DNA of 64,000 bases from assembly GCA_031409655.1 (NCBI GenBank), contig JANNXQ010000195.1:57251-121250 (forward strand). The letters run 5' to 3'. This document shows, in pieces, positions 14,226 through 33,511 of this stretch. Numbering within the stretch: position 1 is the first letter of the stretch; every line of letters starts with the position of its first letter. Source of the stretch: Chthoniobacteraceae bacterium. GTDB taxonomy: Bacteria > Verrucomicrobiota > Verrucomicrobiia > Chthoniobacterales > Chthoniobacteraceae. The notes under the pieces are model-generated. The model worked only from the letters and a program-made list of their open reading frames with translations, did no database searches and was not told where the DNA came from. Position numbers and translations under genes: made by a program.

Positions 14226-14788
14226 AGAAGCTGATCGCCCTCTTCCTGCTGCTCGCGCCGACGTTCACTCAAGCGGCGGAAAAGCCCGCGGGCTACGACA
14301 CCTTTCAGCTCATCCGCACACGCCCGATCTTCGATCCAAATCGCAAGCCGCCGAAGAAGGAGTCCGACCAGCCGCGCGCGGTGACCCCGTCCCGGCCGAA
14401 GTCGGTGCATCTCGCGCTCACGGGGACGATGGTCACGGAGGCGCGGAAGCTCGCGTTTTTCACCGGCTCGCGTTCCGAGTTTAATAAGATCGTCAGCGTG
14501 GGGGAGAAGCTCGGGGACTACACCGTCGCGACGATTACGGCCAGCGAGGTGAAATTGGACCAGGCGGGCAAGCCGACCGTGGTCACCATGGGCAAGCGTC
14601 TGCAGCTCGAAGGCACGGAAGCAGACGCCGTGGAACCTGAGCCCGCGCCCGCTGCACCGGCGGGCACCAGCGCCACGCCCGCGGCTGATGGCAGTGCCGC
14701 GCCCGCCGCCAGTCCACCGAGCGGCGGGAGCCCGAGCGACATTTTGAAACGCATGATGGAACGCCGCGCCAAGGAGATAAAAAAATGA
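14222..14788 (+). CDS. GspC/PilP-like T2SS accessory protein
   Basis: Signal peptide, 'RPIFDPNR', 'LALTGTM...AFF...VSVGEKLGDYTVATIT..EVKL' (HR-domain-like); directly before secretin. Confidence 0.55.
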   Translation: MKKLIALFLLLAPTFTQAAEKPAGYDTFQLIRTRPIFDPNRKPPKKESDQPRAVTPSRPKSVHLALTGTMVTEARKLAFFTGSRSEFNKIVSVGEKLGDYTVATITASEVKLDQAGKPTVVTMGKRLQLEGTEADAVEPEPAPAAPAGTSATPAADGSAAPAASPPSGGSPSDILKRMMERRAKEIKK

Positions 14789-16434
14789 AAGACCCTCTAG
14801 CCATGAAACAAATCCACCCACACCGCTATCATGGATCGGAAGGCCGCACCCTATTTCTCCTCCTCCTCACGGCGCTGCTCGCCTGGACGCAGCCCGTCCA
14901 AGCGCAGGCGCCGCCGTTGCCGACTGCCCCAGACCCGAAGCCAAGTTTTGAAGTCGATCCACTCCGGGCACCTTCGAAGGCGATGCCCGTCCGCTCGGCG
15001 GTGGGTGCCGCGGCGGTGACCCCGCCGCAACCGAAGCAGGAGATCATGCTCAACTTCCAGGGAGCCTCGCTCAGCGACGTGCTCAACTATCTGAGTGAGG
15101 CGGCGGGTTTCGTCATCATCCAGGAGGCGCCGCTGACTGGCACGGTGAACATCGTCAGCCGTCAGCCCATCGGTCCGGAGGAGGCGGTCGATCTCCTCAA
15201 TACGGTGCTCGTGGAGAAAGGCTTCATCGCCATCCGCAACGGCCGCATTTTGAAAATCGTGAACCGCAAAGATGCGCAGAAGCGCGACCTGCCAGTGCAG
15301 ACCGGGAGCGACCCGGAGAAGATCCCGCGCAAGGATGAGATGGTGACGCAGATCCTGCCGCTGCGTTTCGGCGACGCGGCGAAGCTCGTGGAAAATCTCA
15401 AGCCGCTGTTACCCGATACCGCGACCATTAGCTCGAACGAAGGCAGTAACGCGATCTTGATGACTGATACGCAGACCAATATCCGGCGTATCGCCGAGAT
15501 CATCAAAGCGATCGACACCTCAGTAGCCAGCATCTCGACGATCAAGGTCTATCCGCTGCAGTTTGCAAATGCGAAGGAGCTGGCCACGGTGGTGACGCAG
15601 CTCTTCCAGACGAATGCGACGAGCGGCAGCAGCCGGAGCCGCGACCGCGGGAGTAGTGGATTTCCGTTTCCCTTTCCTGGCAGTGATCGTGGCGGGGACC
15701 GAGGTGGCTCCAGTGGCGGGGACAGTGAAGCCCGCCAGGCGGGGTCGCGGGTCCTCGCGGTCGCGGACGATCAGAGTAATTCACTCATCGTCAGTGCGCC
15801 GGAGGATGTGATCCCGTCGATCACCGAGATCGTGACGCGGATCGACACGAGCATCACGGCAGTGACGGAGACGCGCATCTTCACTTTGAAACATGCCGAT
15901 GCCACCGAGTTGGCGGAGATCCTGACCAATCTGTACAGCGACACTGGCAGCCAAAGTAATCGCAGCAGCAGCTCCAGTCGGGGCGGCAGAGATAGCGGCT
16001 CCAGTGGCGGGCCCGGTTTTCCGTTTGGAATGTTTGGTGGCGGATCGTCTTCGTCGCGATCGAGTTCCAGTGGCGACCAGAGCCAGCGTTCGCTCCAAGA
16101 GTCGAAGGTCGTGGCCGTGGGTGATCCGCGCACGAACTCCGTGCTCGTGATCGCCGCGCGCGACACCCTCATGGAGATCGCCGAGATGATCGGGCGGCTC
16201 GATGCCACCGATGCCAAGAAGCAGCGCGTCTTCGTGCATTCCCTCGAACACGCCGACGCCGAGAGCGTCGCCAATGTCCTGCGCGGCATGCTCGGCGATC
16301 AGACGGCGACGCAGAGTTCAGCGCAGAGCGGGGCCGCGCGACTGACCGAGCGCAGCGCGAACGGTGCGGCCATGGAATCGTCCTCCCAAGGAGTCGGCAG
16401 CGCGGGCGGAGGGCGCTCCTCCGGCGGACGATGA
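14785..16434 (+). CDS. Secretin N-terminal (N0/N1-N3-type) domains only
   Basis: 'IMLNFQGASLSDVLNYLSEAAG', repeated 'VYPLQFANAKELA', 'IFTLKHADATELA', 'VHSLEHADAESVA'; no secretin barrel. Confidence 0.9.
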   Translation: MKDPLAMKQIHPHRYHGSEGRTLFLLLLTALLAWTQPVQAQAPPLPTAPDPKPSFEVDPLRAPSKAMPVRSAVGAAAVTPPQPKQEIMLNFQGASLSDVLNYLSEAAGFVIIQEAPLTGTVNIVSRQPIGPEEAVDLLNTVLVEKGFIAIRNGRILKIVNRKDAQKRDLPVQTGSDPEKIPRKDEMVTQILPLRFGDAAKLVENLKPLLPDTATISSNEGSNAILMTDTQTNIRRIAEIIKAIDTSVASISTIKVYPLQFANAKELATVVTQLFQTNATSGSSRSRDRGSSGFPFPFPGSDRGGDRGGSSGGDSEARQAGSRVLAVADDQSNSLIVSAPEDVIPSITEIVTRIDTSITAVTETRIFTLKHADATELAEILTNLYSDTGSQSNRSSSSSRGGRDSGSSGGPGFPFGMFGGGSSSSRSSSSGDQSQRSLQESKVVAVGDPRTNSVLVIAARDTLMEIAEMIGRLDATDAKKQRVFVHSLEHADAESVANVLRGMLGDQTATQSSAQSGAARLTERSANGAAMESSSQGVGSAGGGRSSGGR

Positions 16435-17870
16435 ATCCAAACCTGATCACTCCCATGCCCAAAAATTTCTCTCTCATTGCCGCTCTGTGCTTTCTGCACG
16501 TCTTCGCGCTCCTCGCTCCGCAGCTCAGCGCGCAAGTGAGCCGCGCCGGCAGTTCCGGGCGCACGACTTCGAGCTCACGGAGCAGTACGGGACGCTCGGT
16601 TTCATCCTCTGGCAGTCGCAGCAGCACCGGACAGCGCCAGTATCGCAGTAATACCGAGCTCGGCGACGCGATGATCACCATCGATCCCGAGACGCGTTCG
16701 CTCGTCATCGTGACCGATGAAGACACGCACAACGAGATGTTGAACGTGATCAAGACGCTCGATAAGCCCAAGCCGCAGGTGCTCATCAAAGTCGTCTTTC
16801 TGGAAGTAACGTATAACAAGGGTTCCGACATCGGCGTCGAAGGCACCTACACCTTCAATCTTGAAGGAGGGAAGACTGCGACCACGGGAACGCGCACCAC
16901 CACGAATACCCAGGTCTCCGGCACGAAAACGACGACCACCTCGCTCGCGGAAACGCTGGGCTCCGCTGCCGCGCTCGGGCGGGCGGTCACCGGTGGGAGT
17001 GGATTCAATATTCCCGTCGCGGGCGTGAACGCGACGGGACTCATCGTGCGGGCGATCGGTGACGATTTCTCCGCGACCGTCCGGGCGCTTTCGACGCAGG
17101 GTAAGGTCGAGGTGCTCTCGCGGCCTTCCATTATGGCGCGGAATAATCAGGAGGCCGTCATTGTGGTCGGTTCCGAGATCCCATTCATCACCAACAGCCG
17201 GATCGACAATACCGGCAATACCATCAACACCGTCACCTATGACGATATTGGCATTATCCTCCGTGTTACTCCCTTCATTACTTCCGAAGGCACCGTGGAG
17301 ATGATCGTCGCACCGGAGATTTCCTCGCTCACCGATCAGACCGTGCCGATCTCCAATACGGTGAACTCTCCGGTGATCTCGAAGCGCTCTGCGGAAACCG
17401 TCGTGGTCACGCCGAATGGCAAGACCGTGGTCATCGGTGGCCTCATGCAGACCCAGCGGATCGATTCCGTGCAAAAAATTCCGATCCTCGGTGATATTCC
17501 GATTCTCGGTTTCCCTTTCCGCCGCACCATCAAGAGCGACGAGAAGAAGGAACTCATGATTTTCCTCACGCCCACCATCGTCAGCGACCCCCGCGAGGTC
17601 GATGCGGTGAATGTGGACGAACTCGGAAAGACGGAACTCGTGGATCGGGCGTTTTCGGAAAAGGAAAAGTCGAAATTCCTCCAAGGCCTGCCCCTCATGC
17701 CGGAACCGGAATATGAGCCGGAGATAACGCCGGCTCCGCGAGCCACTGCCGTGCGGCGGACCTCCCCGAGTAAGTTGCCGACGGTGAAAGCGAGCAAGCC
17801 TGCTCCCGCTTCCGAGCCTGACGTGCGCAAGCCCGCGGCTGTCATTCGCGCCAAAGCCACGCCATTCTAA
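16431..17870 (+). CDS. gspD: Secretin core (GspD C-terminal barrel) with its own signal peptide
   Basis: 'LDKPKPQVLIKVVFLEV', 'VLSRPSIMARNNQEAVIVVGSEIPF', 'GIILRVTP', 'KIPILGDIPILGFPFR..KKELMIFLTP'. Confidence 0.92.
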   Translation: MNPNLITPMPKNFSLIAALCFLHVFALLAPQLSAQVSRAGSSGRTTSSSRSSTGRSVSSSGSRSSTGQRQYRSNTELGDAMITIDPETRSLVIVTDEDTHNEMLNVIKTLDKPKPQVLIKVVFLEVTYNKGSDIGVEGTYTFNLEGGKTATTGTRTTTNTQVSGTKTTTTSLAETLGSAAALGRAVTGGSGFNIPVAGVNATGLIVRAIGDDFSATVRALSTQGKVEVLSRPSIMARNNQEAVIVVGSEIPFITNSRIDNTGNTINTVTYDDIGIILRVTPFITSEGTVEMIVAPEISSLTDQTVPISNTVNSPVISKRSAETVVVTPNGKTVVIGGLMQTQRIDSVQKIPILGDIPILGFPFRRTIKSDEKKELMIFLTPTIVSDPREVDAVNVDELGKTELVDRAFSEKEKSKFLQGLPLMPEPEYEPEITPAPRATAVRRTSPSKLPTVKASKPAPASEPDVRKPAAVIRAKATPF

Positions 17871-17890: not shown

Positions 17891-18553
17891 ATGAATACGA
17901 ATTCGTCTCTTTCCCGGCGTCATTTCCTCTCAGGTGTCGGCGGTGCTGCCGCACTTTTTGCGGTGCCCGGCGCGTTTGCGGAGGCACTCGTCCAGACTCC
18001 GCGTCAAACCGAGGGTCCTTTCTATCCCGACAAGCTTCCGCTCGATACGGACAATGACCTGCTGATTCTAAACGATGCTCTCACCTCCGCGGTTGGTGAG
18101 GTGGCTTACTTGAGTGGGCGGATTCTCAGTCCGAGCGGTGAACCGGTGCGCAACGCGGTGGTCGAGATCTGGCAGTGCGACGCGAGCGGCGTCTATATTC
18201 ACAGCAAGTCCGGCGGGTCGGCCGCGAAGCGGGACGCGAGTTTTCAGGGCTTCGGTCGCTTCGTCACGGGGAGCACAGGGGAGTATCTTTTCCGCACGAT
18301 CAAGCCCGTGCCTTACGTCCCGCGCACTCCGCATATTCACTTCAAAGTCAAAGCGCGGGGGAAAGAGCTGCTCACGACGCAATGCTATATCAAAGGTCAT
18401 CCGGGTAATGAAAAAGATGGCCTCTGGAAGAGGACGGGTGACGAGAAGATGCGGAGCTTGGTGACGGTGGACTTCGCCCCGCTGCCAGGAGCGAAGGCTG
18501 GAGAACTTGCCGCGCGGTTCGATCTGGTCCTTGGCGTGACGCCGGAGGCTTGA
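17891..18553 (+). CDS. Tat-exported intradiol ring-cleavage dioxygenase-like protein
   Basis: SRRHFL Tat motif; 'TEGPFYP', 'VEIWQCDASGVY', 'TIKPVPY..RTPHIHFKV' (Tyr/Tyr/His/His iron ligands). Confidence 0.9.
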   Translation: MNTNSSLSRRHFLSGVGGAAALFAVPGAFAEALVQTPRQTEGPFYPDKLPLDTDNDLLILNDALTSAVGEVAYLSGRILSPSGEPVRNAVVEIWQCDASGVYIHSKSGGSAAKRDASFQGFGRFVTGSTGEYLFRTIKPVPYVPRTPHIHFKVKARGKELLTTQCYIKGHPGNEKDGLWKRTGDEKMRSLVTVDFAPLPGAKAGELAARFDLVLGVTPEA

Positions 18554-18605: not shown

Positions 18606-21600
18606 CTAGCCGCGCGTCGCGAGTTTTGCGCCAGCCTGTTCGAGCCAAGCCGCGTCGGGCATGGCGTAGGGGCGGAAGGTTTCGAGGGTGCCTTCCTGTT
18701 CGTTGGCGAGCAGGGCGCGGTGCAGGCCGAGGGTGGCGGCTTTCGGCGTATCGATGAGGCTCGCGGAGTCGTTGGCGCTCATTTGGAAGATGACCCGCAT
18801 TTCAAATTCGCTCAGCGCCTTCCGGCTCATTGCGCGGTTTACGTTGTTAAACGTATCGACGGTCGCGAAGAGATGCAGCCCGTGCGCGCTGCCTTCGGTG
18901 ATGAGTTCGTTGAACTGGGCGCCGGGGTTGCCGGTGCTCTCTTCGTCGCCGGACGAAAAGCTGAAGTCATCTTCATGCCGGAGCTTCTTGAACTTCTGCA
19001 GGCCATGGATGAACAGGAAGACCGCAGGCTCGTTGCGGGAGGATTCTCCGGCGGCGTTGCGAGTCTTCAGATCCGCGGCGAGTCCACCCATCACCTCGGC
19101 AGCATCGTGACCCCGCGCCAGCGTCAGGCGGCCGGGAAGGGCGGCGGCGAGTTGGTCGATAAAGGTGGCTTCGGGCGTCTCGGGATTCGCACCGTGGAGC
19201 AGGATGAACCTCGCGGTCCCGGCGGGATACTGCGCGGCGAGTGCGACGATGGAGACGCCGATCAAAGTCAGCGCGTCGTCGTCGCGCTGACCGACAAGGA
19301 GCAGGTGATTGCCGCTCTGCCGCTGAAAGACCGCTTCGGTCGGACCTTTGATGGAATTGGGCGCGCCGAGCCAGCAGCGACCCACCGCGGGCGCGGTAGT
19401 CGGTTTCGATTCGAGGGCCGCGCGCAAGCGTTCATTCTCGCGGATGTCGGCCGGTGAATTACCTTCGAAAACGATCGGGCCTGGGTGCTGATCGTGATGC
19501 TGCTCGGCGAGTGCGCGCACCTTGTCGAGCCACTGATCGCGCTCTTCATCCGGCAGCCACACGACCTGGAAGGGGCTGTTCCCCTCGACCGCACCGGAGG
19601 CGTCGTTGTAGATGCCTTCGCCCGGTCGCGAGAGGAGGCGCGGCGCGGAATTATTGTCATCCATGATGAGATAGGCGTCGGCTTCGTTGCATTGCAGGGC
19701 CACGCGGATGGCCATCTGACCGAGCGTTGCGCGGGCGAGCGTGTAAGCACCGCCCAGGGTCTGCGAGCCGAGGATCACATGGATGCCAAAGGCGCGGCCC
19801 TGACGCACGATGCGATCGAAGAGCAGCGCGGCGCCTTGCGAGACGTTGTCGTCCTCAACGAAGAACTCCTGGAATTCATCGATCATCAGCAGCGAGCGCG
19901 GCATCGGTTCGGCCCCACCCTCGCGCTTGTAGCCCGCGAGATCCTGCACGCCGAGTTTGCGGAAAATGTCTCCGCGCCGTTTCAACTCATCGTCCACGCG
20001 TTGCAGCACACTGAGCGCAAATTCCCGGTCGCTTTCAATGGCCACGACGCGCGCATGCGGAAGGCGTTTCGTGGCGTAGCACTTAAATTCCACGCCTTTC
20101 TTAAAGTCGATGAGGTAAAACTCCACCTGCTCGGGACTGCACGCGAGGGCGAGGTTCGTGATGATGACGTGGAAGAGCGTGGATTTTCCTGAGCCCGTCT
20201 TGCCGGCGAAAAGCGCATGCTGGCGCGTGCCTTTGCCGATCGCGAGATACTGCAATTTCGTCGCCCCGGTGCGGCCCACGGCGATGCGCAGTTCGGTGGT
20301 CGTGTCGTGCGTCCACATCTCCTCGGGCTTCGGCGCGATCTGGAGGAAAGGCACCTCGACGCGATTCGAGTCGATGCTGGCTTTGCCGATCTTATGGACG
20401 AGCGCAACGGCGAGATCGGCGTCGGGAGGGGCATCGAGCGCGGCCGTGGCCGTGATCGCGGAGTGCGTGGTCTGGACCACGAGCGCGTCGCCCTGACGGC
20501 GGAGGCAGACGCTGCTCTTGCGGAGTTCAGCGGCGACGAAACCATCCGGCATCGACTGCCGCGGATCCCAATGGATGAGCGTGAAGACGCCGCAGCGCGG
20601 ACCGCTGGCGGCGATGCTTTGCAGACGTTTCACCGCGGACTCGCTGAAGCTTGCGGGGAAATCCGCGACGACGAGAAAGTGATATTTCTCCGCCACGCTG
20701 CCTGCCTTGGCATTGTACTCCGTAATCGTGGCGAACTCATTGCGGAGATACATCTGGATGACTTTCTCGATGTGTTCATTGAGGTCGTCGAGCCGCTCTT
20801 CGATTTGCTCGCGCTGCGTCCAGATGCGGCGGTTGATGAGGCTTTCCTCGTGATCCCCGAGATGCATGAGTCCGGCGAAGTTTTGGCCGAGCCCGACGGG
20901 ATCGATGATCGTGAAGCTGAGCTTCCCCGGCGGCGTGGTGGCGAGCAGGCGGAGGATGGAGTTGTTGATCGTCCCGACGACCGAGGGCTCGCTCGAGTCG
21001 TTCGTTTCAAAGAGGAGCGAACCTTCTGCCGGGAAAGAGAGGGCGAGGGGAATGGAGACGCGGGGCCCGCCGGGCAGGCCGAGGCGGGGATCCTTGGGGC
21101 CGGGCGAAGCGGCCTGCGTGAGGTCGAGTTCCAGCGCGCCAAATTTCACCGCGGGAGCGAAAGCCGTCGGTGCCTTCCATGCTTCCACCATCTCCGAATC
21201 CCACGCTGGGAAGCGCCCCTCGGTCCCCGCTTTTATCTCCTCGATCGCGGCATGCACCGGGAGGATCTCGCGCTGCCAGTCCGCTTCGAGCGCGCCCCAG
21301 CGGGCGGCTTCATCGGCAGCAAAGGCCGCGAGGTCCGCCGCGTGCGCTTCGCTGAGCGTCGTGCGCCGGGTGTCGCTGGCGCTCTGGATCTCGCCGAGCG
21401 CCGCGGTGCGTCCCTCCGCGAGCGTCGTGATTTTCGGCGCGAGCATCTGTTCATTGCGGGCAAAGGCACCGGGGAGTTGCTGCCGGAGTTTTTCCCGCCG
21501 AGCGGCGGCAAATTCACGCTCGAGGTCATCGGCGCGATTCCACTCCTCCTGGATTCCCTGCGCGAGGGCATCGTGCTCCTCCTGGAGGCGCTGCCGCTCC

Positions 21601-22511
21601 GCTGCGTGATGCGCCGTGGCCTCCGCGGCACTCGCATCATGCGCCCGCACGGCCATCCCGAGCGCACCCGCCAGCTCCGAAGCCGTGGCTTTCGACTGAC
21701 TGAGCCCGATCCGGTGAATGAGGACGACGAGGATGATCGCAACGAGCGTCGCTCCACCAGCGATCATCGGCGCGTCGGGATTTGCCCGCAGGACGAGCCA
21801 GACGATCAACCCCACGACGGCCAGGATCGGGAGCACCGCCGGGAGCGGCGCGTAGCTAAAGAGACGCGGCAGGGCGAAGCGGCGGAACTGGCCCAGCTTC
21901 TCCTCCGCGACCGCGAGCTGACTCTTGAGTTCAGTGAGTGAAGCCTGGTGATCGCCCGTGCCGATGGGCCCGCCCGCCGGCGCCGTGCGTTCACTGCGCA
22001 GCATCTTCTGAAAGGAACTGCAGCCGCCAAAAGCATTCCACGCGCGCTGCTCGAGCTTGCCATGCGCCGTGCGCTGCTCGCCGAGCCGCGCGACGAATTC
22101 CGCAAAATTCCCGTCCTCCGCCTTCAAGTCCACCGGCAGCGCCTTTTCCGCGCGGAAGTGCCGCATTTGCAGCCCGGTGAGGTACTTCTCCTTTTCATGC
22201 TGCGCCCGGGTCTTGAGCTTTTGCATGCTGTTCGTGTGCTTCTGCTGGATGCCCATCCGCCGTTCCTCGTGAAAGGCCCGGACGCGCGTTTCCTCCGCCG
22301 TCACGCCCTCCTCGGTCTCGGCGACCTGCGCCGCGAGCCGGGTCTCGAGGGCCGCGAGCGCCTCCCGGTTTCGCCGATTCAGCGCGGAACGGCGGATGTT
22401 CAGGTCGCGCGTCAGTTGCTCCTCGCGTTGGGCAAACTCCGCCGCGGTCAGTTTCAGTTTTCCGAAGAGGTCGAGACTCCGGGTGACTCGTAGGTCGATG
22501 TCGCTATTCAC
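18606..22511 (-). CDS. FtsK/SpoIIIE-domain membrane ATPase (EccC/EssC-like)
   Basis: Coiled coils, two TM helices, Walker A AGKTGSGKST, 'FYLIDFKKGVEF', Walker B LLMIDEFQ, 'RQGRAFGIHVILGSQ'; degenerate ATPase-like domains on both sides. GTG 22511 overlaps upstream stop. Confidence 0.92.
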   Translation of the reverse strand: MNSDIDLRVTRSLDLFGKLKLTAAEFAQREEQLTRDLNIRRSALNRRNREALAALETRLAAQVAETEEGVTAEETRVRAFHEERRMGIQQKHTNSMQKLKTRAQHEKEKYLTGLQMRHFRAEKALPVDLKAEDGNFAEFVARLGEQRTAHGKLEQRAWNAFGGCSSFQKMLRSERTAPAGGPIGTGDHQASLTELKSQLAVAEEKLGQFRRFALPRLFSYAPLPAVLPILAVVGLIVWLVLRANPDAPMIAGGATLVAIILVVLIHRIGLSQSKATASELAGALGMAVRAHDASAAEATAHHAAERQRLQEEHDALAQGIQEEWNRADDLEREFAAARREKLRQQLPGAFARNEQMLAPKITTLAEGRTAALGEIQSASDTRRTTLSEAHAADLAAFAADEAARWGALEADWQREILPVHAAIEEIKAGTEGRFPAWDSEMVEAWKAPTAFAPAVKFGALELDLTQAASPGPKDPRLGLPGGPRVSIPLALSFPAEGSLLFETNDSSEPSVVGTINNSILRLLATTPPGKLSFTIIDPVGLGQNFAGLMHLGDHEESLINRRIWTQREQIEERLDDLNEHIEKVIQMYLRNEFATITEYNAKAGSVAEKYHFLVVADFPASFSESAVKRLQSIAASGPRCGVFTLIHWDPRQSMPDGFVAAELRKSSVCLRRQGDALVVQTTHSAITATAALDAPPDADLAVALVHKIGKASIDSNRVEVPFLQIAPKPEEMWTHDTTTELRIAVGRTGATKLQYLAIGKGTRQHALFAGKTGSGKSTLFHVIITNLALACSPEQVEFYLIDFKKGVEFKCYATKRLPHARVVAIESDREFALSVLQRVDDELKRRGDIFRKLGVQDLAGYKREGGAEPMPRSLLMIDEFQEFFVEDDNVSQGAALLFDRIVRQGRAFGIHVILGSQTLGGAYTLARATLGQMAIRVALQCNEADAYLIMDDNNSAPRLLSRPGEGIYNDASGAVEGNSPFQVVWLPDEERDQWLDKVRALAEQHHDQHPGPIVFEGNSPADIRENERLRAALESKPTTAPAVGRCWLGAPNSIKGPTEAVFQRQSGNHLLLVGQRDDDALTLIGVSIVALAAQYPAGTARFILLHGANPETPEATFIDQLAAALPGRLTLARGHDAAEVMGGLAADLKTRNAAGESSRNEPAVFLFIHGLQKFKKLRHEDDFSFSSGDEESTGNPGAQFNELITEGSAHGLHLFATVDTFNNVNRAMSRKALSEFEMRVIFQMSANDSASLIDTPKAATLGLHRALLANEQEGTLETFRPYAMPDAAWLEQAGAKLATRG

Positions 22512-22713
22512 AATCGATGCGGACCTTTCGCAAAAGCCCATCCAGTTCCTCGATCACCGCCGCCGCGCGGGCCAGGTGATGCGGGAGATCCTCCAGATAG
22601 GTGTGTTCAAATTCCCGAGCCTTCACGTCCCGCCACGATTCCTTCGTCTGCTCCCACTCGGCCTTCAGCTCCTTCGCCGCCTGCAGCAGATTCGACGCGC
22701 TCGCCCGGCTCAT
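22504..22713 (-). CDS. Small WXG100-like protein (WxD variant)
   Basis: 69 aa, helical, 'ESWRDVKAREF'; overlaps both neighbours. Confidence 0.7.
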   Translation of the reverse strand: MSRASASNLLQAAKELKAEWEQTKESWRDVKAREFEHTYLEDLPHHLARAAAVIEELDGLLRKVRIDCE

Positions 22714-23222
22714 GATCCGGCGGCCTCCGGCGGGGGCCCCGCGAGCTTCGGCGCCGTCTCCGCGTAAGCTTCCAGCGTCTTCTGCGCCTGCACCAGAAAG
22801 GCGATTCCCTTCGGCAGATCGAAATCGAGCACGAAGCGCAAACTCTCGATTCGTTTCAGCAGCGGCTCCGCAGAGGCGTCAAAATCCCGGGTCCACTTCT
22901 TCACCAGGCGCATCTTTTTCTCCGCGTGATCCAGCGCCTCCTTCGCCTTGCGCACCGCATTCTGCTGCGCCGAGATGTTGTCACGCAGATTGGAAAGTTT
23001 CGCACTTAGCAGCTCCTGCTGCGCCGCATCCAGGAGCTTCCGCTGCTTCCGGATTTCCTGCTCCCAGTGGGTCCGCCGATCATTCTGCAGCCACCCGCGC
23101 GTCCGCCGCACCTCGTCGCCCACCTCATCCACGCTGCGATGCGCGTGACCGAGAAAGATGATGAGATTTGCCCGGAACGCCTCCAGCGCGTCGAGCGACG
23201 TGACATGCGCCTGCGGTGCCAT
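22710..23222 (-). CDS. Helical coiled-coil protein of the WXG100/FtsK module
   Basis: 170 aa, all-helical pattern; 3 bp from upstream stop and ATGA overlap downstream. Confidence 0.8.
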   Translation of the reverse strand: MAPQAHVTSLDALEAFRANLIIFLGHAHRSVDEVGDEVRRTRGWLQNDRRTHWEQEIRKQRKLLDAAQQELLSAKLSNLRDNISAQQNAVRKAKEALDHAEKKMRLVKKWTRDFDASAEPLLKRIESLRFVLDFDLPKGIAFLVQAQKTLEAYAETAPKLAGPPPEAAGS

Positions 23223-23225
23223 GGC

Positions 23226-23498
23226 CTAGCGCTGATCCAGATATTCCTCGATGCGTTGCGCCTTGCGCAGGAGGTAGGGTGTGTGTTTTTCCGACACCTC
23301 GACGAATTTTTTCAGCACCTTCATCGTCGTCAGGAATTCCTCCGCAAACTTCTCCGCATCCTGATCCTGCCAGGTGCTCCCGAGCGCCGCAAAGCGCGCC
23401 TGCAAAGCCCCCGCCCGGACCTGCACGTCGTCATTGAAGCGCTTCAGCTCTTTGGCGAAGCGCCGCACTTCCTCCGGGTCCATGATCGCTTGAGCCAT
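23226..23498 (-). CDS. WXG100/ESAT-6-like protein (W-Q-D variant)
   Basis: 90 aa MAQAIMDPEEVRRFAKELKRF...LGSTWQDQDAEKFAEEF...IEEYLDQR; Trp43 between two amphipathic helices. Confidence 0.9.
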   Translation of the reverse strand: MAQAIMDPEEVRRFAKELKRFNDDVQVRAGALQARFAALGSTWQDQDAEKFAEEFLTTMKVLKKFVEVSEKHTPYLLRKAQRIEEYLDQR

Positions 23499-23678
23499 AG
23501 GGAATATTGCTGGGGTTTTAGGATTCGCTCCAAGGCTACTCGCAGCGTGAGCGCCCGGGATCTTTGCAGGTGGGGAATCTCTATGAACTCCCTGCGAAAC
23601 GCAACGCGCGAGAGCCGCGAGCGGATTGTTGGTTGTCGAAAGGGCAAGACCGGCGATTTTCCCGCCCTTGGAAATTGC

Positions 23679-26423
23679 ATGATCGACGTCCTCTACCAGC
23701 GCGGCCTCGAACTTCCGGCCCACGGGCTCTGGCTCGATCCGTGGGAGGCGCGGCCGTTTGCTTTTGTCTCCCATGCGCACAGCGATCACACCGCGCGGCA
23801 CGCGGAGATCATCGCCAGTGTGGGCACGGCGCGGTTGATGCAGGCGCGCCTGGGTGGCGTGCGGCGGGAGCAAGTGCTGGAGTTTGGGGAGCGGCGGGAG
23901 TTTGGGAATTTCGCGATCACGCTCTTGCCGGCGGGACATATCTTTGGCTCGGCGCAGGCGTTCATCGAGAGCGCGGCGGGGACGCTTTTGTACACCGGTG
24001 ATTTCAAGCTGCGTCACGGACTCTCCGCGGAACCCGCCGAATGGCGGCAGGCAGACACCTTGATCATGGAGACGACCTACGGCCTGCCGAAGTATCGGAT
24101 GCCGCCGACGGAGGAGGTGCTCGCGCGAATGATCGCGTTTTGCCAGGAAACGCTGGAGGACGGTGCGGTGCCGGTGCTGCTCGGGTATTCGCTGGGCAAG
24201 TCGCAGGAGATCCTCTGCGCGTTGCTCGCGGCGGGGCTGACGCCGATGCTGCACGGGGCGGTGTGGAAGATGACGGAGATCTACCGGCAGCTTCGGCCAG
24301 GTTTCCCGACTGGTTACGAACCTTATGCGGCTGGTGAAGTCGCGGGGAAGGTGCTGGTCTGCCCGCCGAGTGCGAATCGGACGGTGATGGTCACGCGGAT
24401 CAAGAATAGGCGGGTGGCCTCGCTGACGGGTTGGGCGCTCGATCCGGGGGCGAAGTATCGGCTGCAATGCGATGCCGCTTTTCCACTCACGGATCACGCG
24501 GACTATCCGGACCTGCTCCGCTACGTGGAACTCGTGCAGCCAAAGCGCGTGCTCACTTTGCATGGCTTTGCGGCGGCGTTTGCGCGGGACCTGCGGGCGC
24601 GGGGAGTGGAAGCGTGGGCCTTGAGCGAGGATAACCAACTGGAACTCGCCTTACCCACGGAGGAGAAGCAGCCGCGGATTTCGCAGATGGCGCGGATTTC
24701 TGAAACGAGCGCCGCACCCGTGTTCTCGGGGCCATCCGCGGTGTCCTTTTCAGCGGTCGCGGAGTTTGCGGCTTTTGCCGAAGCTGGCGAACGCATCGCC
24801 TCGACGACGAGCAAGCTCAAGAAGACGGCCGTGCTCAGCGAGTATCTTCGTTCGCTGGACGCCGCGGCGTTGCCGATCGCGGCGGTCTATCTCACCGGCC
24901 ACGCCTTTGCGCAGGCGGAGGCGAAGGCGCTGCAAGTGGGCGGCGCGGTGATCCGGCAGGCGCTCCTGACCGTGAGTGGCTTGAGCGCAGGGGAGTTTCG
25001 GACTATCTCGCGCACCCACGCAGATGCGGGGAAGACGGCTTACGAAGTGCTCCTCGAGCGCACGACTCCGCAGCCGTTTAGCCTCGTCCAGTCGCGGGAG
25101 TTTTTCGCCGCGCTCCAGGCCGCGCGCGGTCCTTTGGCAAAAGGCGAACTCCTGCAGGCGCGCCTCGCGACCCTCGCGCCGCTGGCCGCGAGCTACGTCG
25201 TCCGGATCGTCACCGGCGACCTGCGCATTGGGTTGAAAAGCGGGCTGGTGGAGGAGGCTATCGCCGCGGCGTTTGACGAGCCAGCGAGCAGCGTGCGCCA
25301 GGCCCACATGCTCACGGGCGATCTCGGCGAAGTGGCCACGCGGGCGGCGCAGCACACGCTCGGCGAGGCGACGTTGCGCCTCTTTCATCCGATCCAGTGC
25401 ATGCTCGCCAGTCCTGAGCCGACGGCGGCGGCGATCTGGGCGCGGCTTTCCGAACTCGATCCCCAGAGCATCACTTCGCCCGCCTGGGCCGAGGAAAAAT
25501 ACGACGGCATCCGCGCGCAGCTTCATGTCGCCGGTGGGCGGGTGGAAATTTTTTCGCGCGATCTCCGCCCCTTGACTGGCGAGTTCGCCGATCTCGCGAG
25601 CGTGGCCGGCCAGTTTGCTCGCCCGGCGATTCTCGATGGTGAACTGCTCGCTTTCGATGACGGTCGGCGGCTCACCTTTTTCGATCTGCAAAAGCGGCTC
25701 GGACGCAAGACGGAGAACGATCTTTTCCTCGCGGCGAGCGCTGTGCCGGTGATCTTCAAAGCCTTCGACTTGCTCTTTCTCGACGGCACGGCGCTGCTCG
25801 ATCGCCCCTTGCACGAACGTCGCACTTTGCTCGAAAGCCTCGCCCTCCCGCCGCGACTCGAGGTCGCGCCCAGATTCGCGGTGGCCTCGGCGGACGAGGT
25901 GGAGGCGGCTTTTGCCGCAGCGCGCAAGCGGGGTCACGAAGGGCTCATCGTCAAAGAATGCGCGAGCCTCTACACGCCGGGGCGGCGGGGTCAGGCTTGG
26001 CTGAAGTTTAAAAAGGAACTCGCCACGCTCGACGTCGTGGTCGTGGGCGCGGAGCAGGGCCATGGCAAACGCAGCCACGTGCTGAGTGACTACACTTTTG
26101 CCGTCCGCGACGATGCCACCGGCGGGCTGCTCACGATCGGGAAGGCCTACTCCGGCCTCACCGACCTGGAGATCGAGGAACTCACGGAACACTTCACGGC
26201 CACGACAGTCGCGCGTCGGGGGAAGTTCCGCGAAGTGCATCCCGAGATCGTCCTGGAGATCGCCTTCGATTCCATCCAGCCAAGCGCGCGGCACGCCAGT
26301 GGACTTGCGATGCGCTTCCCGAGGATCAAAGGCATCCGCCGGGATAAGACGCCCGCGGAGATCGATACGCTGAGTGCGGCGCGGATGCTGGTGGCGGGGC
26401 AAAGGACGAAGGATGAAGGATGA
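23679..26423 (+). CDS. MBL/beta-CASP nuclease fused to ATP-dependent DNA ligase
   Basis: 'SHAHSDH', 'AGHIFGSA', 'YTGDF', 'METTYG', 'TDHADY'; then 'EEKYDGIRAQ', 'LDGEL', 'FDLL', 'EGLIVK', 'WLKFK', 'MRFPRI'. Confidence 0.93.
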   Translation: MIDVLYQRGLELPAHGLWLDPWEARPFAFVSHAHSDHTARHAEIIASVGTARLMQARLGGVRREQVLEFGERREFGNFAITLLPAGHIFGSAQAFIESAAGTLLYTGDFKLRHGLSAEPAEWRQADTLIMETTYGLPKYRMPPTEEVLARMIAFCQETLEDGAVPVLLGYSLGKSQEILCALLAAGLTPMLHGAVWKMTEIYRQLRPGFPTGYEPYAAGEVAGKVLVCPPSANRTVMVTRIKNRRVASLTGWALDPGAKYRLQCDAAFPLTDHADYPDLLRYVELVQPKRVLTLHGFAAAFARDLRARGVEAWALSEDNQLELALPTEEKQPRISQMARISETSAAPVFSGPSAVSFSAVAEFAAFAEAGERIASTTSKLKKTAVLSEYLRSLDAAALPIAAVYLTGHAFAQAEAKALQVGGAVIRQALLTVSGLSAGEFRTISRTHADAGKTAYEVLLERTTPQPFSLVQSREFFAALQAARGPLAKGELLQARLATLAPLAASYVVRIVTGDLRIGLKSGLVEEAIAAAFDEPASSVRQAHMLTGDLGEVATRAAQHTLGEATLRLFHPIQCMLASPEPTAAAIWARLSELDPQSITSPAWAEEKYDGIRAQLHVAGGRVEIFSRDLRPLTGEFADLASVAGQFARPAILDGELLAFDDGRRLTFFDLQKRLGRKTENDLFLAASAVPVIFKAFDLLFLDGTALLDRPLHERRTLLESLALPPRLEVAPRFAVASADEVEAAFAAARKRGHEGLIVKECASLYTPGRRGQAWLKFKKELATLDVVVVGAEQGHGKRSHVLSDYTFAVRDDATGGLLTIGKAYSGLTDLEIEELTEHFTATTVARRGKFREVHPEIVLEIAFDSIQPSARHASGLAMRFPRIKGIRRDKTPAEIDTLSAARMLVAGQRTKDEG
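24671..24741. repeat. 9-bp-period repeat/hairpin in nuclease-ligase linker
   Basis: CGCGGATTT-CGCAGATGG-CGCGGATTT; CCGCGGAT (24672) pairs with ATCCGCGG (24734). Confidence 0.5.
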
Positions 26424-29515: not shown

Positions 29516-32500
29516 CTACGGCGTCCAGGTAGTCTTCACGCGGAGGAACTGTTCCGGCACGGCGCTGAGTAAGTGGGTCGTGCGGATCGTGACGCGATCG
29601 AATGCGCCCTGATCGACAACACTCGTTTCTACGGTCGCGCCGGGCGAGGGATCCCAGACCATCAACGCGGTGGACACTTCCACCGTGTAAGTAAGATCAT
29701 AGGCATTCTTGCGGCGGGAGTAAGTCAGGGTCGGATAACCCCCCTCGATCGCGACGAAAGGCGCCAAGGCCGTGCTGCTCCGGTGCGGGTCGCCGTCGAA
29801 GGCGTATTCGAGCAGGTTCGTCCAGCCATCGCGCTCGGCGTCGGCGTTGATTCCGCTGATCGCGTCATTCAGCAATTCAGCCGCGCTGAATTTGGTGGAT
29901 TGCCAGACCTCGAAGGTCGGCGGCGTGCTCGAGAAGTTGAGCACGAGATTGTTGCCGCTGACCGTGAGGATAAAGCCACCGACGAAGAGGTCGTTGTTAT
30001 TCGCGAAGTTTGTCGTCTGGAGCAGGAACTTGGAGCGATCGAAGCCCACAATGCCTCCAGAGGCAGTCGCGATGATCCAGGAGTTGTTCGCCGCATTGTT
30101 AAAGGTCGGGACGACGCCGGGCACGTTTGCGGCCGTGAGGCCGGTGATATCGATCACGAAACGCTCGCTGGACGTCGCGGTGATCGTGAGCGGCCCGTTG
30201 ATGTTGTGCCAATCGCTGCCGGAGGGGCCGCCTTGAGTGTCATTGGCGTGATTGATTTGCCACTGATAGGCACCACCGGGGGCGTAGGTGGCCGCACCGG
30301 TGGTCATCTTTCCGACGAATGAGCCAGGGGCGAAGGTGGCGCCTTGCTGGATGGTAAGCGCGCCTGCGAGCGTGCCCGTTCCGGTGAAAGTGCCACCCTC
30401 GAGGGTTGTCGGTCCGGAGAAGGTCGCACCAGTGGGGAAGGTCAGGGTTCCGGTCCCCGTTTTGATGATGGCTCCAGTGCCGGTGATGGTGCCGGAAAGA
30501 TTGCCGCTGCCGAGAGTGAGGCTGGCGCTGCCGAGTTGCACGGCGCCGCCGCCGGTGAGTGCGGCGATCGTTTGGTCGAAGTCATTCAGGTCGAGCGTGG
30601 TGCCTGGGAGGAAGCCGATGACGGAGCCAGCGGGCAGCGTATTGACCGCCCCTGCTTGCAATGTTCCGGCGGTGATCGCGAGCGGCCCGGAGTAAGTATT
30701 GGCCCCGGAGAAAATCATCATCCCCGTGCCGATCTTCTCCAGGCTCATGATACCGCCGTAGCCACCGTTATTCGCAATCGCGCCGCTGAAATCGACGGTC
30801 GTCCCAGACTCCGCCCGCAATTGCAGCAGACGGTGGCGATTGTCGCCGCTCGTTCCGAGCAAAAGGTTTCCGGAAAAGACGGCGTTGCCTGCGGTGATCG
30901 CGTCGGGAGCGATGCTGTTGCCGACGATCGCCGCGCCCCCGCTGCCGGAGAGCACATCGATGGCGCGCGGGATGGTGATGGAGCCGGTGCTGTTACTGGC
31001 AAAGACGCCGGTACTCGCATTGCCGCTGCGTCCTCCGAGCAAGACGTAAGCTCCCTCCGCAGCGCCGAGCCCAGCTCCGTTGTTGGTCAGCAGCGCGCCT
31101 TCCGCAAGGATGAGTCCGCCGGTGAAGGTGTTGTTGCCGGTGAGTTCGAGGATGCCATTCCCGGTCTTTAGTAAGTCGGAATACAACCCACCCGAGATCG
31201 CTCCGGACAGACGCGCAAAGTCACTCGTCGAGTCGGGATTATCGATCACGCAAATTTCCCGTGCGCGATAGTTCGGGAGCACGCTGGGGCTGGTGAGGTT
31301 GAGATTGTCGATGAAGGTGATGCGGCGGTCGGCGCGGGCTGAGCCAAGGATCAGGGCGTGGCTGGGATCAATAAAGTACGGTTGCTCCCAAGTAAGGGTA
31401 CTCACGCCGGCACCGTTGAAATCCACGGATGCGTGGGCCCCCACGGCGGCAAAGCCTCCGCTGCCTTTGTCTTCCTTCGAGAGCCCCGTAACGATCGGCG
31501 TGCCGGTGTCGTCCCCGCGCCAATTCAGGTTCCCATTGGCGATCCCGAGCGTGGGGTTGTAGGTGCCGCCGCCGATCAACTCGATGACGCCGCCGCGGAG
31601 TTCGACCCGGCCGCCTGGCAGGCTGGTGCCAGGCGTGGCGCGGATGGTGCCGGCATTGATCGTGAACGGACGGAGTAACGTGGAGTTGGCGGGATGGGTC
31701 AGAATCAGCGTGCCTTCGCCGGCTTTGGTCACGGCATTCGTCGCGGTGGAGACGCCGACGGCGAGCGAGGCTTCAATCGTCAGCGCGGCACTCTGCACAT
31801 GGATGTAACGGGCGCCACCGGGACCGGTCAGTCCCCCGGTGCCGCCTCCGGTATTCGTGATGGCGTAGTCGGTGTTGCCGCGGAGGAGAAGGCCATTGGT
31901 GGAAAGGGAGCCCGTCGAAGTAATGGCGAGACTTTGCCCAGGGGCGCTCGGCGCGAGGACGAGGGAGTTCAGCGAGAAGGTGAGGGCACTCGCGATGGTC
32001 CCGGAGCCCGCGAGGAGCGCGTTACCGGTCGGCGAGGACGAGGCGGGGAAAGAGGCGGTGGCGGCTGCGCCGATACCATTCGCGCCATGGGTGGCGAAGC
32101 CCGCGCCATGCACGGTGGCCCAGCCGACGGAGCTATCTGCCGAGACATTGCTCCGCGAGAGCAGGTTATTAAAGAGAAACGGCAGGCCGAAGACGATCCG
32201 CGGTACGTTGCCTGATTGGCCGAGAGTGAGCGTCGCGCCCGCGGTATTTGTGGCGGTGAAATCCACGGTGGTCCGGGGCGCGCTGGCGCTGTCCCGCGAG
32301 TAGTTCGCGATATTCAACACCGTAGCCGCCGTGACCCCGGCGCGATGGACCACTCCCACCTTGAGCGCTCCGGCCCGGGTTTGGGTGGCGCTGCCGAGTT
32401 GCAGGCGGGCGACCGTTTCCGTAGTCCCCGCAGTATGACCGATTAGTTGGAACTCGCCGCCGCCGCCGACCTCGATGCCAGTCGCTCCGCTGTCGCGCAG

Positions 32501-33511
32501 TCGATTGGTGATGTTGAGCGTCGCATTATCGAGCACAAAACTTCCGCCCTGGAGCACGACGGCGGCGGCGGTCGAGGTCGCCAGAGAGGTGTTCCCGCTA
32601 AAGATCAGCGTGGCTCCGCGACCGGCCACGACATCGCCATTCACGGCGAGCGGACCACTGAAAGTTTGCGTGCTCGTCCCGCGGATCACCACTGCGCCCG
32701 CGTTGGTGCCGGGGGCTGTGGCCGAGTTACCCAGGCTGCCGGCAAAGGTCGCGTCGTCGAGCATGAGGAGGAGAATGTTTTGGCCATTTCCCGTCGTCGC
32801 ATCGCGGGCGAGGACTGCGCCGCTGTTCCCGGATAGTTCGCCGCTGCTCAGCTCGGAGTTACAGCCGAGCGTCGAGGAGCCGTTCAAGGTGATGCGATTG
32901 GCGCGCAGCGCAGTGCGTCCGGTATCGCCGTCGTTGCTGAAGCGCAGGTCGCCGCCGATCAGAGTAAAGCCGCCGTGGAAAGTATTCCCTGAAGGCGTGC
33001 CCGGAGCCGGACTACCCAGGCGATAAGGACTTGGCCCTGATCTCGTGATCAGCCCCGCACCGCTCAAGGCACCATTCAAAACCACGCTCCCCAAACCAGT
33101 CCCGGCGAAGGTCATCGGCTTCGCCACATCCAGCGCGGCGTCGATCGTAAAAGCCCCCGAGCGATTCTGCGAGATCTGCGCACCGAGACCGCCAAAGCGC
33201 AGCGCATTCCCCGCGATCTTCTGCGCTACGCTGCTCGTGCTATTGAGTTGCAGACCGCCTAGTAAGAACGGCGCGGGTGCGAGGTCATTGGTCGTTGTGT
33301 AAGTCGCGGCGCCGCTTCCGCCAAAATCTAGCACGGTGCTAGTGCCACTGATGGGGACGGAGGCTGGCGACCAATCTCCGCCCACGCTCCAGTTGTCCGT
33401 TACGTTACTCCAAAGGCTCGTCGCGCTGTGGGCGCGCAGCACTGCCGACCAGAGCAAGACCATCTGCAGTAAGGATCGGGTGAGACGTGAAACTCTCGAT
33501 GAGGACAACAT
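29516..33511 (-). CDS. Large secreted beta-helical protein with passenger-associated repeats, no autotransporter barrel
   Basis: Repeated 'K.G.GTL.L.G.NT..G...I..GTL'; signal peptide; C-terminal 'NLLEYAF...FLRVK' domain. Confidence 0.88.
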   Translation of the reverse strand: MLSSSRVSRLTRSLLQMVLLWSAVLRAHSATSLWSNVTDNWSVGGDWSPASVPISGTSTVLDFGGSGAATYTTTNDLAPAPFLLGGLQLNSTSSVAQKIAGNALRFGGLGAQISQNRSGAFTIDAALDVAKPMTFAGTGLGSVVLNGALSGAGLITRSGPSPYRLGSPAPGTPSGNTFHGGFTLIGGDLRFSNDGDTGRTALRANRITLNGSSTLGCNSELSSGELSGNSGAVLARDATTGNGQNILLLMLDDATFAGSLGNSATAPGTNAGAVVIRGTSTQTFSGPLAVNGDVVAGRGATLIFSGNTSLATSTAAAVVLQGGSFVLDNATLNITNRLRDSGATGIEVGGGGEFQLIGHTAGTTETVARLQLGSATQTRAGALKVGVVHRAGVTAATVLNIANYSRDSASAPRTTVDFTATNTAGATLTLGQSGNVPRIVFGLPFLFNNLLSRSNVSADSSVGWATVHGAGFATHGANGIGAAATASFPASSSPTGNALLAGSGTIASALTFSLNSLVLAPSAPGQSLAITSTGSLSTNGLLLRGNTDYAITNTGGGTGGLTGPGGARYIHVQSAALTIEASLAVGVSTATNAVTKAGEGTLILTHPANSTLLRPFTINAGTIRATPGTSLPGGRVELRGGVIELIGGGTYNPTLGIANGNLNWRGDDTGTPIVTGLSKEDKGSGGFAAVGAHASVDFNGAGVSTLTWEQPYFIDPSHALILGSARADRRITFIDNLNLTSPSVLPNYRAREICVIDNPDSTSDFARLSGAISGGLYSDLLKTGNGILELTGNNTFTGGLILAEGALLTNNGAGLGAAEGAYVLLGGRSGNASTGVFASNSTGSITIPRAIDVLSGSGGAAIVGNSIAPDAITAGNAVFSGNLLLGTSGDNRHRLLQLRAESGTTVDFSGAIANNGGYGGIMSLEKIGTGMMIFSGANTYSGPLAITAGTLQAGAVNTLPAGSVIGFLPGTTLDLNDFDQTIAALTGGGAVQLGSASLTLGSGNLSGTITGTGAIIKTGTGTLTFPTGATFSGPTTLEGGTFTGTGTLAGALTIQQGATFAPGSFVGKMTTGAATYAPGGAYQWQINHANDTQGGPSGSDWHNINGPLTITATSSERFVIDITGLTAANVPGVVPTFNNAANNSWIIATASGGIVGFDRSKFLLQTTNFANNNDLFVGGFILTVSGNNLVLNFSSTPPTFEVWQSTKFSAAELLNDAISGINADAERDGWTNLLEYAFDGDPHRSSTALAPFVAIEGGYPTLTYSRRKNAYDLTYTVEVSTALMVWDPSPGATVETSVVDQGAFDRVTIRTTHLLSAVPEQFLRVKTTWTP

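Follow-up and report, generated by a model that had tools for sequence, protein, structure and literature searches.

What can a WXG100 protein and an EccC-type ATPase do together in a diderm bacterium when the scaffold subunits of a type VII secretion system (T7SS) are not found with them? The question is raised by a 64,000-nucleotide stretch of contig JANNXQ010000195.1 from a Chthoniobacteraceae bacterium (Verrucomicrobiota) of soil or freshwater type, referred to at its full length as the window, in which four minus-strand open reading frames (ORFs), A-B-C-D, are tightly coupled. A preliminary description of the locus had given the spacing of these genes and their W-Q-D and W-R-D motifs, and all of these details are present in the sequence: A and B are separated by a 3-bp gap, B and C share an ATGA overlap, and C and D overlap by 8 bp when D starts at GTG 22511, the residue at which orthologue matches start (an alternative start is ATG 22541).

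Gene A, 23226..23498, minus strand: 90-amino-acid (aa) WXG100 protein of the WxD type (W43-Q-D45), HP0062-like.
Gene B, 22710..23222, minus strand: 170-aa long helical hairpin of an unnamed family.
Gene C, 22504..22713, minus strand: 69-aa helical protein with W27-R-D29.
Gene D, 18606..22511, minus strand: 1301-aa EccC/EssC-like ATPase.
Intergenic stretch between A and a divergent ligase gene, 23499..23678: presumed promoter region, from its position only.

Our answer is a tentative one, to which we give slightly less than an even chance. The operon is conserved and of the kind that pairs a "solo WXG" protein with a three-domain FtsK ATPase. Facing the cytoplasm at the inner membrane, its motor D would grip and remodel a rod made up of A, B and C, with the membrane hairpin of D serving as a probably optional anchor and not as an export pore. 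Five observations underlie this reading, namely the content and order of the genes, the identity of A, the three-domain ATPase, the repeated clean loss of the hairpin, and the absence of neighbouring cargo or immunity genes.

Sequence profiles place A in the WXG100 family. It matches PF06013 with 38.6 bits (cut-off 27.3, E 1.3e-9) and scores 30.6 against the stricter TIGR03930, under the cut-off of 44.85. Its top Protein Data Bank (PDB) match is Helicobacter HP0062 (3FX7, E 3.7e-6), a resemblance that the preliminary description had named correctly, and as in HP0062 the conserved W43 is followed by x-D instead of x-G. W43, D45, Y86 and L87 are invariant among 60 sequences, and the C-terminus, IEEYLxQR, is strongly conserved. 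A is the sole PF06013 match in the genome and a stand-alone protein of 90 aa in 64/64 orthologues extracted, with no toxin fusion.

The predicted architecture of D is that of a three-domain EccC-like ATPase with one intact active site. Residues 1 to ~430 form a helical stalk, in the middle of which two hydrophobic segments (217–274) make up a two-helix membrane hairpin; D1 (~455–715, degenerate), D2 (~735–1010) and D3 (~1040–1295, degenerate) follow. The motifs GKTGSGKST, MIDEFQ and RQGR lie in D2, PF01580 (FtsK/SpoIIIE) matches at 733–917, and a single Walker A, in D2, is found in 67/67 orthologues. The FtsK-type ATPase of about 1300 residues with two transmembrane (TM) segments described previously thus stands, with the three ATPase-fold domains and the one intact Walker A added. 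EccC/EssC models match D under their cut-offs, and T. curvata EccC 4NH0 is its best PDB match by sequence (E 6.5e-31) as well as its best fold match (927 columns, E 3e-20), the three-domain region of D aligning with the three-domain cytoplasmic part of EccC. D3 aligns with D2 at an hhalign probability of 96%. In the structure model of residues 102–1301 (pLDDT (predicted local distance difference test) 71, predicted template modelling score 0.40, D2 partly poor), the second membrane helix extends into a 136-residue helix and three alpha/beta domains come after the stalk.

The hairpin of D is not a constant part of the protein. Among 67 near full-length orthologues, rows shorter than 1230 aa having been dropped, 61 carry the hairpin and six do not (five by hydropathy, one, L018, by segment length), and the hairpin is also gone in 2/34 tested metagenome loci. 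The alignment of hairpin-less L053 with hairpin-bearing L038 contains one 48-aa in-frame gap over the hairpin, with 1097/1242 of the remaining positions identical. The hairpin-less rows do not group together in a quick tree, which has six label changes (five forced by starred branches; one is the TerY-P pair described below). From this nesting, and with no root test, we infer that the hairpin was deleted at least four separate times besides the TerY-P pair. Hairpin-less rows retain the Walker A and, besides L018, also A-B-C, and a hairpin-less D is the only copy found in 5/5 genomes searched. Few parts of D are as poorly conserved as the hairpin region (0.44 vs 0.83–0.96 in D2). Pairwise ratios of nonsynonymous to synonymous substitution rates (dN/dS) between L053 and L038 are 0.01–0.11 for all four genes; those between L069 and L077 are higher, up to ~0.47. 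To judge by these sequences, the membrane hairpin is dispensable. Its deletion in relatives is new here: we found no description of it in the literature on this class, a scope outside which the supplements of Bell 2024 and Zhang 2012 lie. In L018 (7305–11063), the 8 kb upstream of the hairpin-less D contain neither A nor B nor C.

The remaining parts of a T7SS were sought in the genome, which is 94.9% complete, by searches run with positive controls. EccB (PF05108), EccD/YukD-type proteins (PF08817), EsaA-N (TIGR03929), EssA (PF10661), EssB (PF10140) and LXG (PF04740) were not found in the genome, and the controls were positive in each case; the search for EccE (PF11203) gave no match in any control and is hence uninformative. 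By the features tested the unit is not a canonical T7SS, as the preliminary description had suggested on recognising none of the further T7SS parts in the window.

It could still be a true minimal type VII exporter, in which six D subunits would form a 12-helix pore that passes the A-B-C rod to the periplasm, alone or together with unlinked cargo; we consider this unlikely. WXG100 and EccC/EssC proteins are the shared T7SS core (PMC11217815), D matches EccC best both by sequence and by fold, the hairpin is present in 61/67 orthologues, the corresponding EccC helices line the ESX-5 pore (bioRxiv 10.64898/2026.07.31.742005), and such units have been termed minimal or stand-alone secretion systems (PMC4978471, PMC11090510). 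A pore is harder to reconcile with a hairpin that is poorly conserved and was cleanly lost at least four times from intact, single-copy operons; in ESX-5, even slight alterations of the EccC pore helices affect secretion (bioRxiv 10.64898/2026.07.31.742005). Nor were scaffold subunits found, or cargo fused to B, either in the best 150 of 2654 cluster representatives of B-like proteins, all of them 109–244 aa long, or among longer proteins, the latter being weak evidence by the tool's own note.

The four genes are conserved as a unit. Genome contigs were scanned for D, with 203 relatives confirmed; the best 80 loci, selected by likeness to D and not at random, are nearly all labelled Verrucomicrobiota, and the best matches point to a host in or near Chthoniobacteraceae. 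The order A-B-C-D occurs in 62/65 genome loci that extend 1300 bp or more upstream, or in 63 after rescue of C in L081 with a hidden Markov model (HMM); the exceptions are L074, without A, and L018, without A, B and C. Among metagenome loci, which were selected by A, 39/43 with at least 1500 bp downstream have matches to B, C and D. Because the same order recurs in genome and metagenome loci and pairwise dN/dS is low, the four-gene unit is not a chance arrangement, and the earlier view of a stripped-down T7-like unit in a diderm is supported. A is found, always once, in 26/36 genomes of the family with 73–92% identity and, by a single-protein query, in 10/300 genomes sampled across the phylum. 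Searched with HMMs of A, B and C, the 73,431 ORFs of the genome yielded no further ORF resembling any of the three. The indicators of mobility are mixed, with varying neighbours and a patchy spread in the phylum, yet a single copy in the family genomes and a GC content of the unit that resembles its flanks.

Several loci depart from this pattern. L182 and L192 contain A and B with no C or D match within 7 kb downstream, and the operon can therefore be split. In L089 (697–2741, minus strand) and L090 (481–2683, plus strand), a diverged A-B-C precedes a Ser/Thr kinase gene, and no ATPase gene is adjacent. Seven records labelled Acidobacteriota or Bifidobacteriaceae (L029, L032, L040, L054, L062, L069 and L080) nest among verrucomicrobial rows in the D tree; they may be wrongly labelled or come from mixed bins.

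No gene beyond the four is a regular companion. All-against-all clustering of 6690 ORFs from the 80 loci revealed no conserved fifth gene; the unit and its shadow frames aside, no real gene recurred in more than 9 loci. On the downstream side, 54 of 90 neighbours were scanned at E<=1e-25 and proved to be varied housekeeping genes or unnamed, and no cargo, immunity, VWA, kinase or phosphatase genes were found beside the cargo-less unit. With its single copy, its 73–92% identical A and its varied housekeeping neighbours, the locus is unlike a polymorphic toxin locus. The same neighbourhoods bear on whether D could be a DNA translocase or a conjugation coupling unit to which the small proteins would be accessory, which is very improbable. 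D does belong to the FtsK/SpoIIIE family, and the TcpA and FtsK motor domains are among its matches; these are weaker than EccC, the layout of D is that of three-domain EccC and not of FtsK, its partner is a WXG100 protein, a separate canonical FtsK is encoded elsewhere in the genome, and no relaxase or conjugation gene recurs nearby.

Two distant relatives from the sample of the phylum lend some weight to a role in defence, in which an intracellular anti-phage or abortive-infection module would use the motor to sense infection and release the rod to damage the membrane or activate an unlinked effector. These TerY-P forms, L086 (6713–19502) and L087 (5272–11375), comprise VWA genes, A, a 436–442-aa coiled-coil protein, a small gene, a C-sized gene and a TM-less D; L086 additionally contains a phosphatase (PP2C), a kinase and a superfamily 1 helicase, with an Eco57I-like methylase upstream. 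The C-terminal part of the 436–442-aa protein is nuclease-like by a visible D...ExK pattern and by comparison with Bell 2024, with no Pfam nuclease match, and B sits in the slot of this protein. Such island layouts are those described for CoCoNuT extensions (PMC11090510), and the patchy distribution (10/300 genomes) would suit a defence gene. The cargo-less form, by contrast, has no recurring defence gene beside it, PADLOC matches span only the ATPase domain or the coiled coil, and the unit is single-copy and evolves slowly within the family. We regard a defence module as rather improbable.

The position of B invites comparison with this nuclease carrier. AlphaFold2 predicts B as an antiparallel two-helix hairpin (H2–77 and H80–156, pLDDT 88.6), which refines the helical coiled coil described previously. 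No Pfam or NCBIfam family matches B above its cut-off, and Foldseek returned no match at E<=0.001, only generic coiled coils. When a profile of B (141 rows) was aligned by hhalign with one of the first 205 residues of the relatives' coiled-coil nuclease (120 rows), the two aligned end to end with a local E of 1.5e-3, a global E of 1.9e-4 and a probability of 17–23%, compared with E 0.025–0.23 for the controls (reversed, stalk). Single nuclease-carrier sequences gave no significant match to B; the profile pair alone aligned, weakly. These data are suggestive of B as a likely nuclease-free version of the stalk that carries the coiled-coil nuclease in the relatives, a relation that is new here. 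In the Atlas, the B query also retrieved a 433-member cluster of ~353-aa proteins (64% Imm33-like, mostly Planctomycetota, score 0.83), possibly a B-like carrier fused to another domain.

The assignment of C is less clear. Its residues W20, W27, D29, F35 and C68 are invariant in 60 sequences, and neither Pfam nor the other profile libraries scanned yielded a family match. Against A, hhalign aligns the WxD motifs with E 0.03, reciprocal HMM matches are weak, and the nearest named cluster in the Atlas is WXG100 (0.79, a lead only). C is therefore at most WXG100-like, a putative member of the family, and the earlier assignment of the small proteins to WXG100 holds for A but finds no Pfam match for C. 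Look-alikes of B and C are present also in Planctomycetota in the Atlas.

How might the unit work as a pore-free motor? A and C would pack lengthwise against B, the long hairpin, and the three would make up a rod, by analogy with Lap proteins on an LXG domain (PMC10801868). D would assemble into a ring in which D3 would hold A by its conserved C-terminal helix, much as EccC binds its signal peptide (structure title 4N1A). ATP would be hydrolysed by D2, and the motor would then thread or release the rod at or into the inner membrane. The purpose, and the weakest step, could be upkeep of the cell envelope or the cell's own stress response; a purpose within the producing cell is suggested because the unit carries no toxin. 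Export, hand-off to the neighbouring type II secretion system (T2SS) and action inside the cell had all been proposed in the preliminary description, and of the three the intracellular option fits best because the membrane hairpin is dispensable. A broader version of this reading is possible but on balance unlikely: a T7-derived motor may have been domesticated in bacteria of the Planctomycetes-Verrucomicrobia-Chlamydiae (PVC) group as a pore-free and toxin-free device for assembling a WXG100 rod of three proteins at the inner membrane or inserting it there.

Several points weigh against the pore-free motor. About 90% of orthologues, the window's D included, retain the hairpin, and a hexamer of two-helix EccC subunits forms the ESX-5 pore (bioRxiv 10.64898/2026.07.31.742005; PMC8232910). 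The pairwise dN/dS values span both branches and cannot isolate the time after the loss, such that the hairpin-less copies may be in recent decay. The genomes are metagenome bins, in which an unlinked, unrecognised membrane partner, or cargo unlike A, B or C, would escape detection. D1 has no profile match to D2 and is placed by the model and the fold match; B resembles the nuclease carrier only weakly, in a comparison of one coiled coil with another.

The T2SS beside D was an obvious candidate partner, and a two-step route in which cargo is handed to it had been suggested from the convergent secretin operon. A full gsp (T2SS) cluster ends 736 bp from D, behind a dioxygenase-like gene. We queried 80 + 28 + 80 loci with the window's gspF/G/J/K/D proteins. 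Matches to gspF lie within 8 kb in 5/80 genome loci, on other sides or strands; neither window secretin ORF was matched in any of the 80 (0/80), a distant secretin match occurs in 1/28 further loci, and gsp genes are absent from 24 close metagenome loci with 6 kb downstream (0/24). The linkage is thus rejected as absent from relatives' loci, and the T2SS neighbour is, on this sequence comparison, incidental. Secretins are present in 60/61 related genomes, five of them in the window's genome, and the missing linkage concerns adjacency, with which use of an unlinked secretin is still compatible; even so, a hand-off to the adjacent T2SS is extremely improbable.

The secretin itself is split over two plus-strand ORFs of the window, 14785–16434 and 16431–17870, joined by an ATGA overlap. 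The first comprises N0 and several Secretin_N domains, while the second opens with a signal-peptide-like stretch and contains one N domain and the secretin core. The best secretin matches of several relatives lie in similarly short frames of 450–580 aa, and this division may be a conserved one.

Between D and the secretin genes, the end of D faces a convergent gene for a dioxygenase-like protein with a twin-arginine translocation signal (17891–18553). On the far side of A lies a divergent gene (23679–26423, plus strand) whose 914-aa product fuses, by Pfam matches, a metallo-beta-lactamase-fold RNase-like domain to an ATP-dependent DNA ligase. Further away, 29516–33511 (minus strand) encodes a 1331-aa autotransporter-like surface protein with passenger-associated transport repeats (PF12951). 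No sigma-70 consensus promoter was found upstream of A, and terminator-like sites occur at chance level only.

If the domestication reading is true, the EccC-WXG100 core works independently of secretion. The natural alleles with and without the hairpin, which are 88% identical, allow a pore to be told apart from a role inside the cell, and the four-gene form is the simplest setting for asking whether WXG100 and an EccC-type ATPase alone can secrete. Chthoniobacter flavus, which is cultured, carries a B orthologue. The module is common and has been noted in print, which limits the surprise; its interest rests on the hairpin loss and the cargo-less form.

The preliminary description overstated the novelty of the unit, as the class is already in print with verrucomicrobia included (PMC3482391, PMC11090510, PMC4978471). 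The portions of PMC11217815, PMC3935865 and PMC10632474 bearing on such systems contain no mention of the unit in diderms, and we found no experimental test of it in a diderm in the literature, though it has been proposed in print since 2012. The class of Zhang 2012 (PMC3482391, Table 1 note 6) likewise consists of a solo WXG protein and a three-domain YueA-like ATPase with an active middle HerA/FtsK domain, and has verrucomicrobia and other diderms among its hosts. The present unit agrees with it in its stand-alone WXG protein and in its three HerA/FtsK domains, the middle one alone being predicted active. That note speaks of mobile T7SS versions, without B, C or the hairpin, whereas the unit here is single-copy and resident in 26/36 family genomes. 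PMC11090510 cites Anantharaman 2012 for stand-alone copies.

The CoCoNuT/TerY-P systems of Bell 2024 (PMC11090510) also have three ATPase domains with only D2 active, a long coiled coil at the N-terminus, two WXG100-like proteins, one of which lacks the motif, and a coiled-coil protein in the operon. Their ATPase is TM-less, their coiled coil is fused to a D-ExK nuclease and followed by a DNA-mimic-like gene, and they lie in VWA-flanked defence islands. In contrast, B ends after its hairpin with no nuclease fusion, D usually has its TM segments, and no immunity-like gene and no VWA, kinase or phosphatase gene accompanies the unit. In Helicobacter pylori, HP0062 (3FX7/2GTS) is a WxD-type WXG100 hairpin clustered with HP0066, an FtsK/SpoIIIE-domain gene (PMC3397514, PMC4978471), and the two have been called a minimal T7SS set (Uchiyama 2016, PMC4978471). 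Similarity to HP0062 is only about E 4e-6, and the cited table has a nuclease and a DnaK homologue linked with the Helicobacter cluster.

Klein et al. 2024 (PMC10801868) describe an LXG protein that, like B, is long, helical and flanked in the operon by two small helical proteins, Lap1 and Lap2; B differs in having no PF04740 match and no toxin domain, and the A-B-C complex is putative. Finally, T7SSa (ESX: EccB/C/D/E, MycP) and T7SSb (EsaA, EssA, EssB, EssC, EsaB/YukD) share with the unit a WXG100 protein and a three-domain ATPase with two TM helices. The unit differs from both in that no scaffold subunits were found, FHA domains are absent and the host is a diderm; D2 and not D1 is the intact ATPase domain, and the TM hairpin lies in the middle of a long stalk, where it appears to be dispensable.

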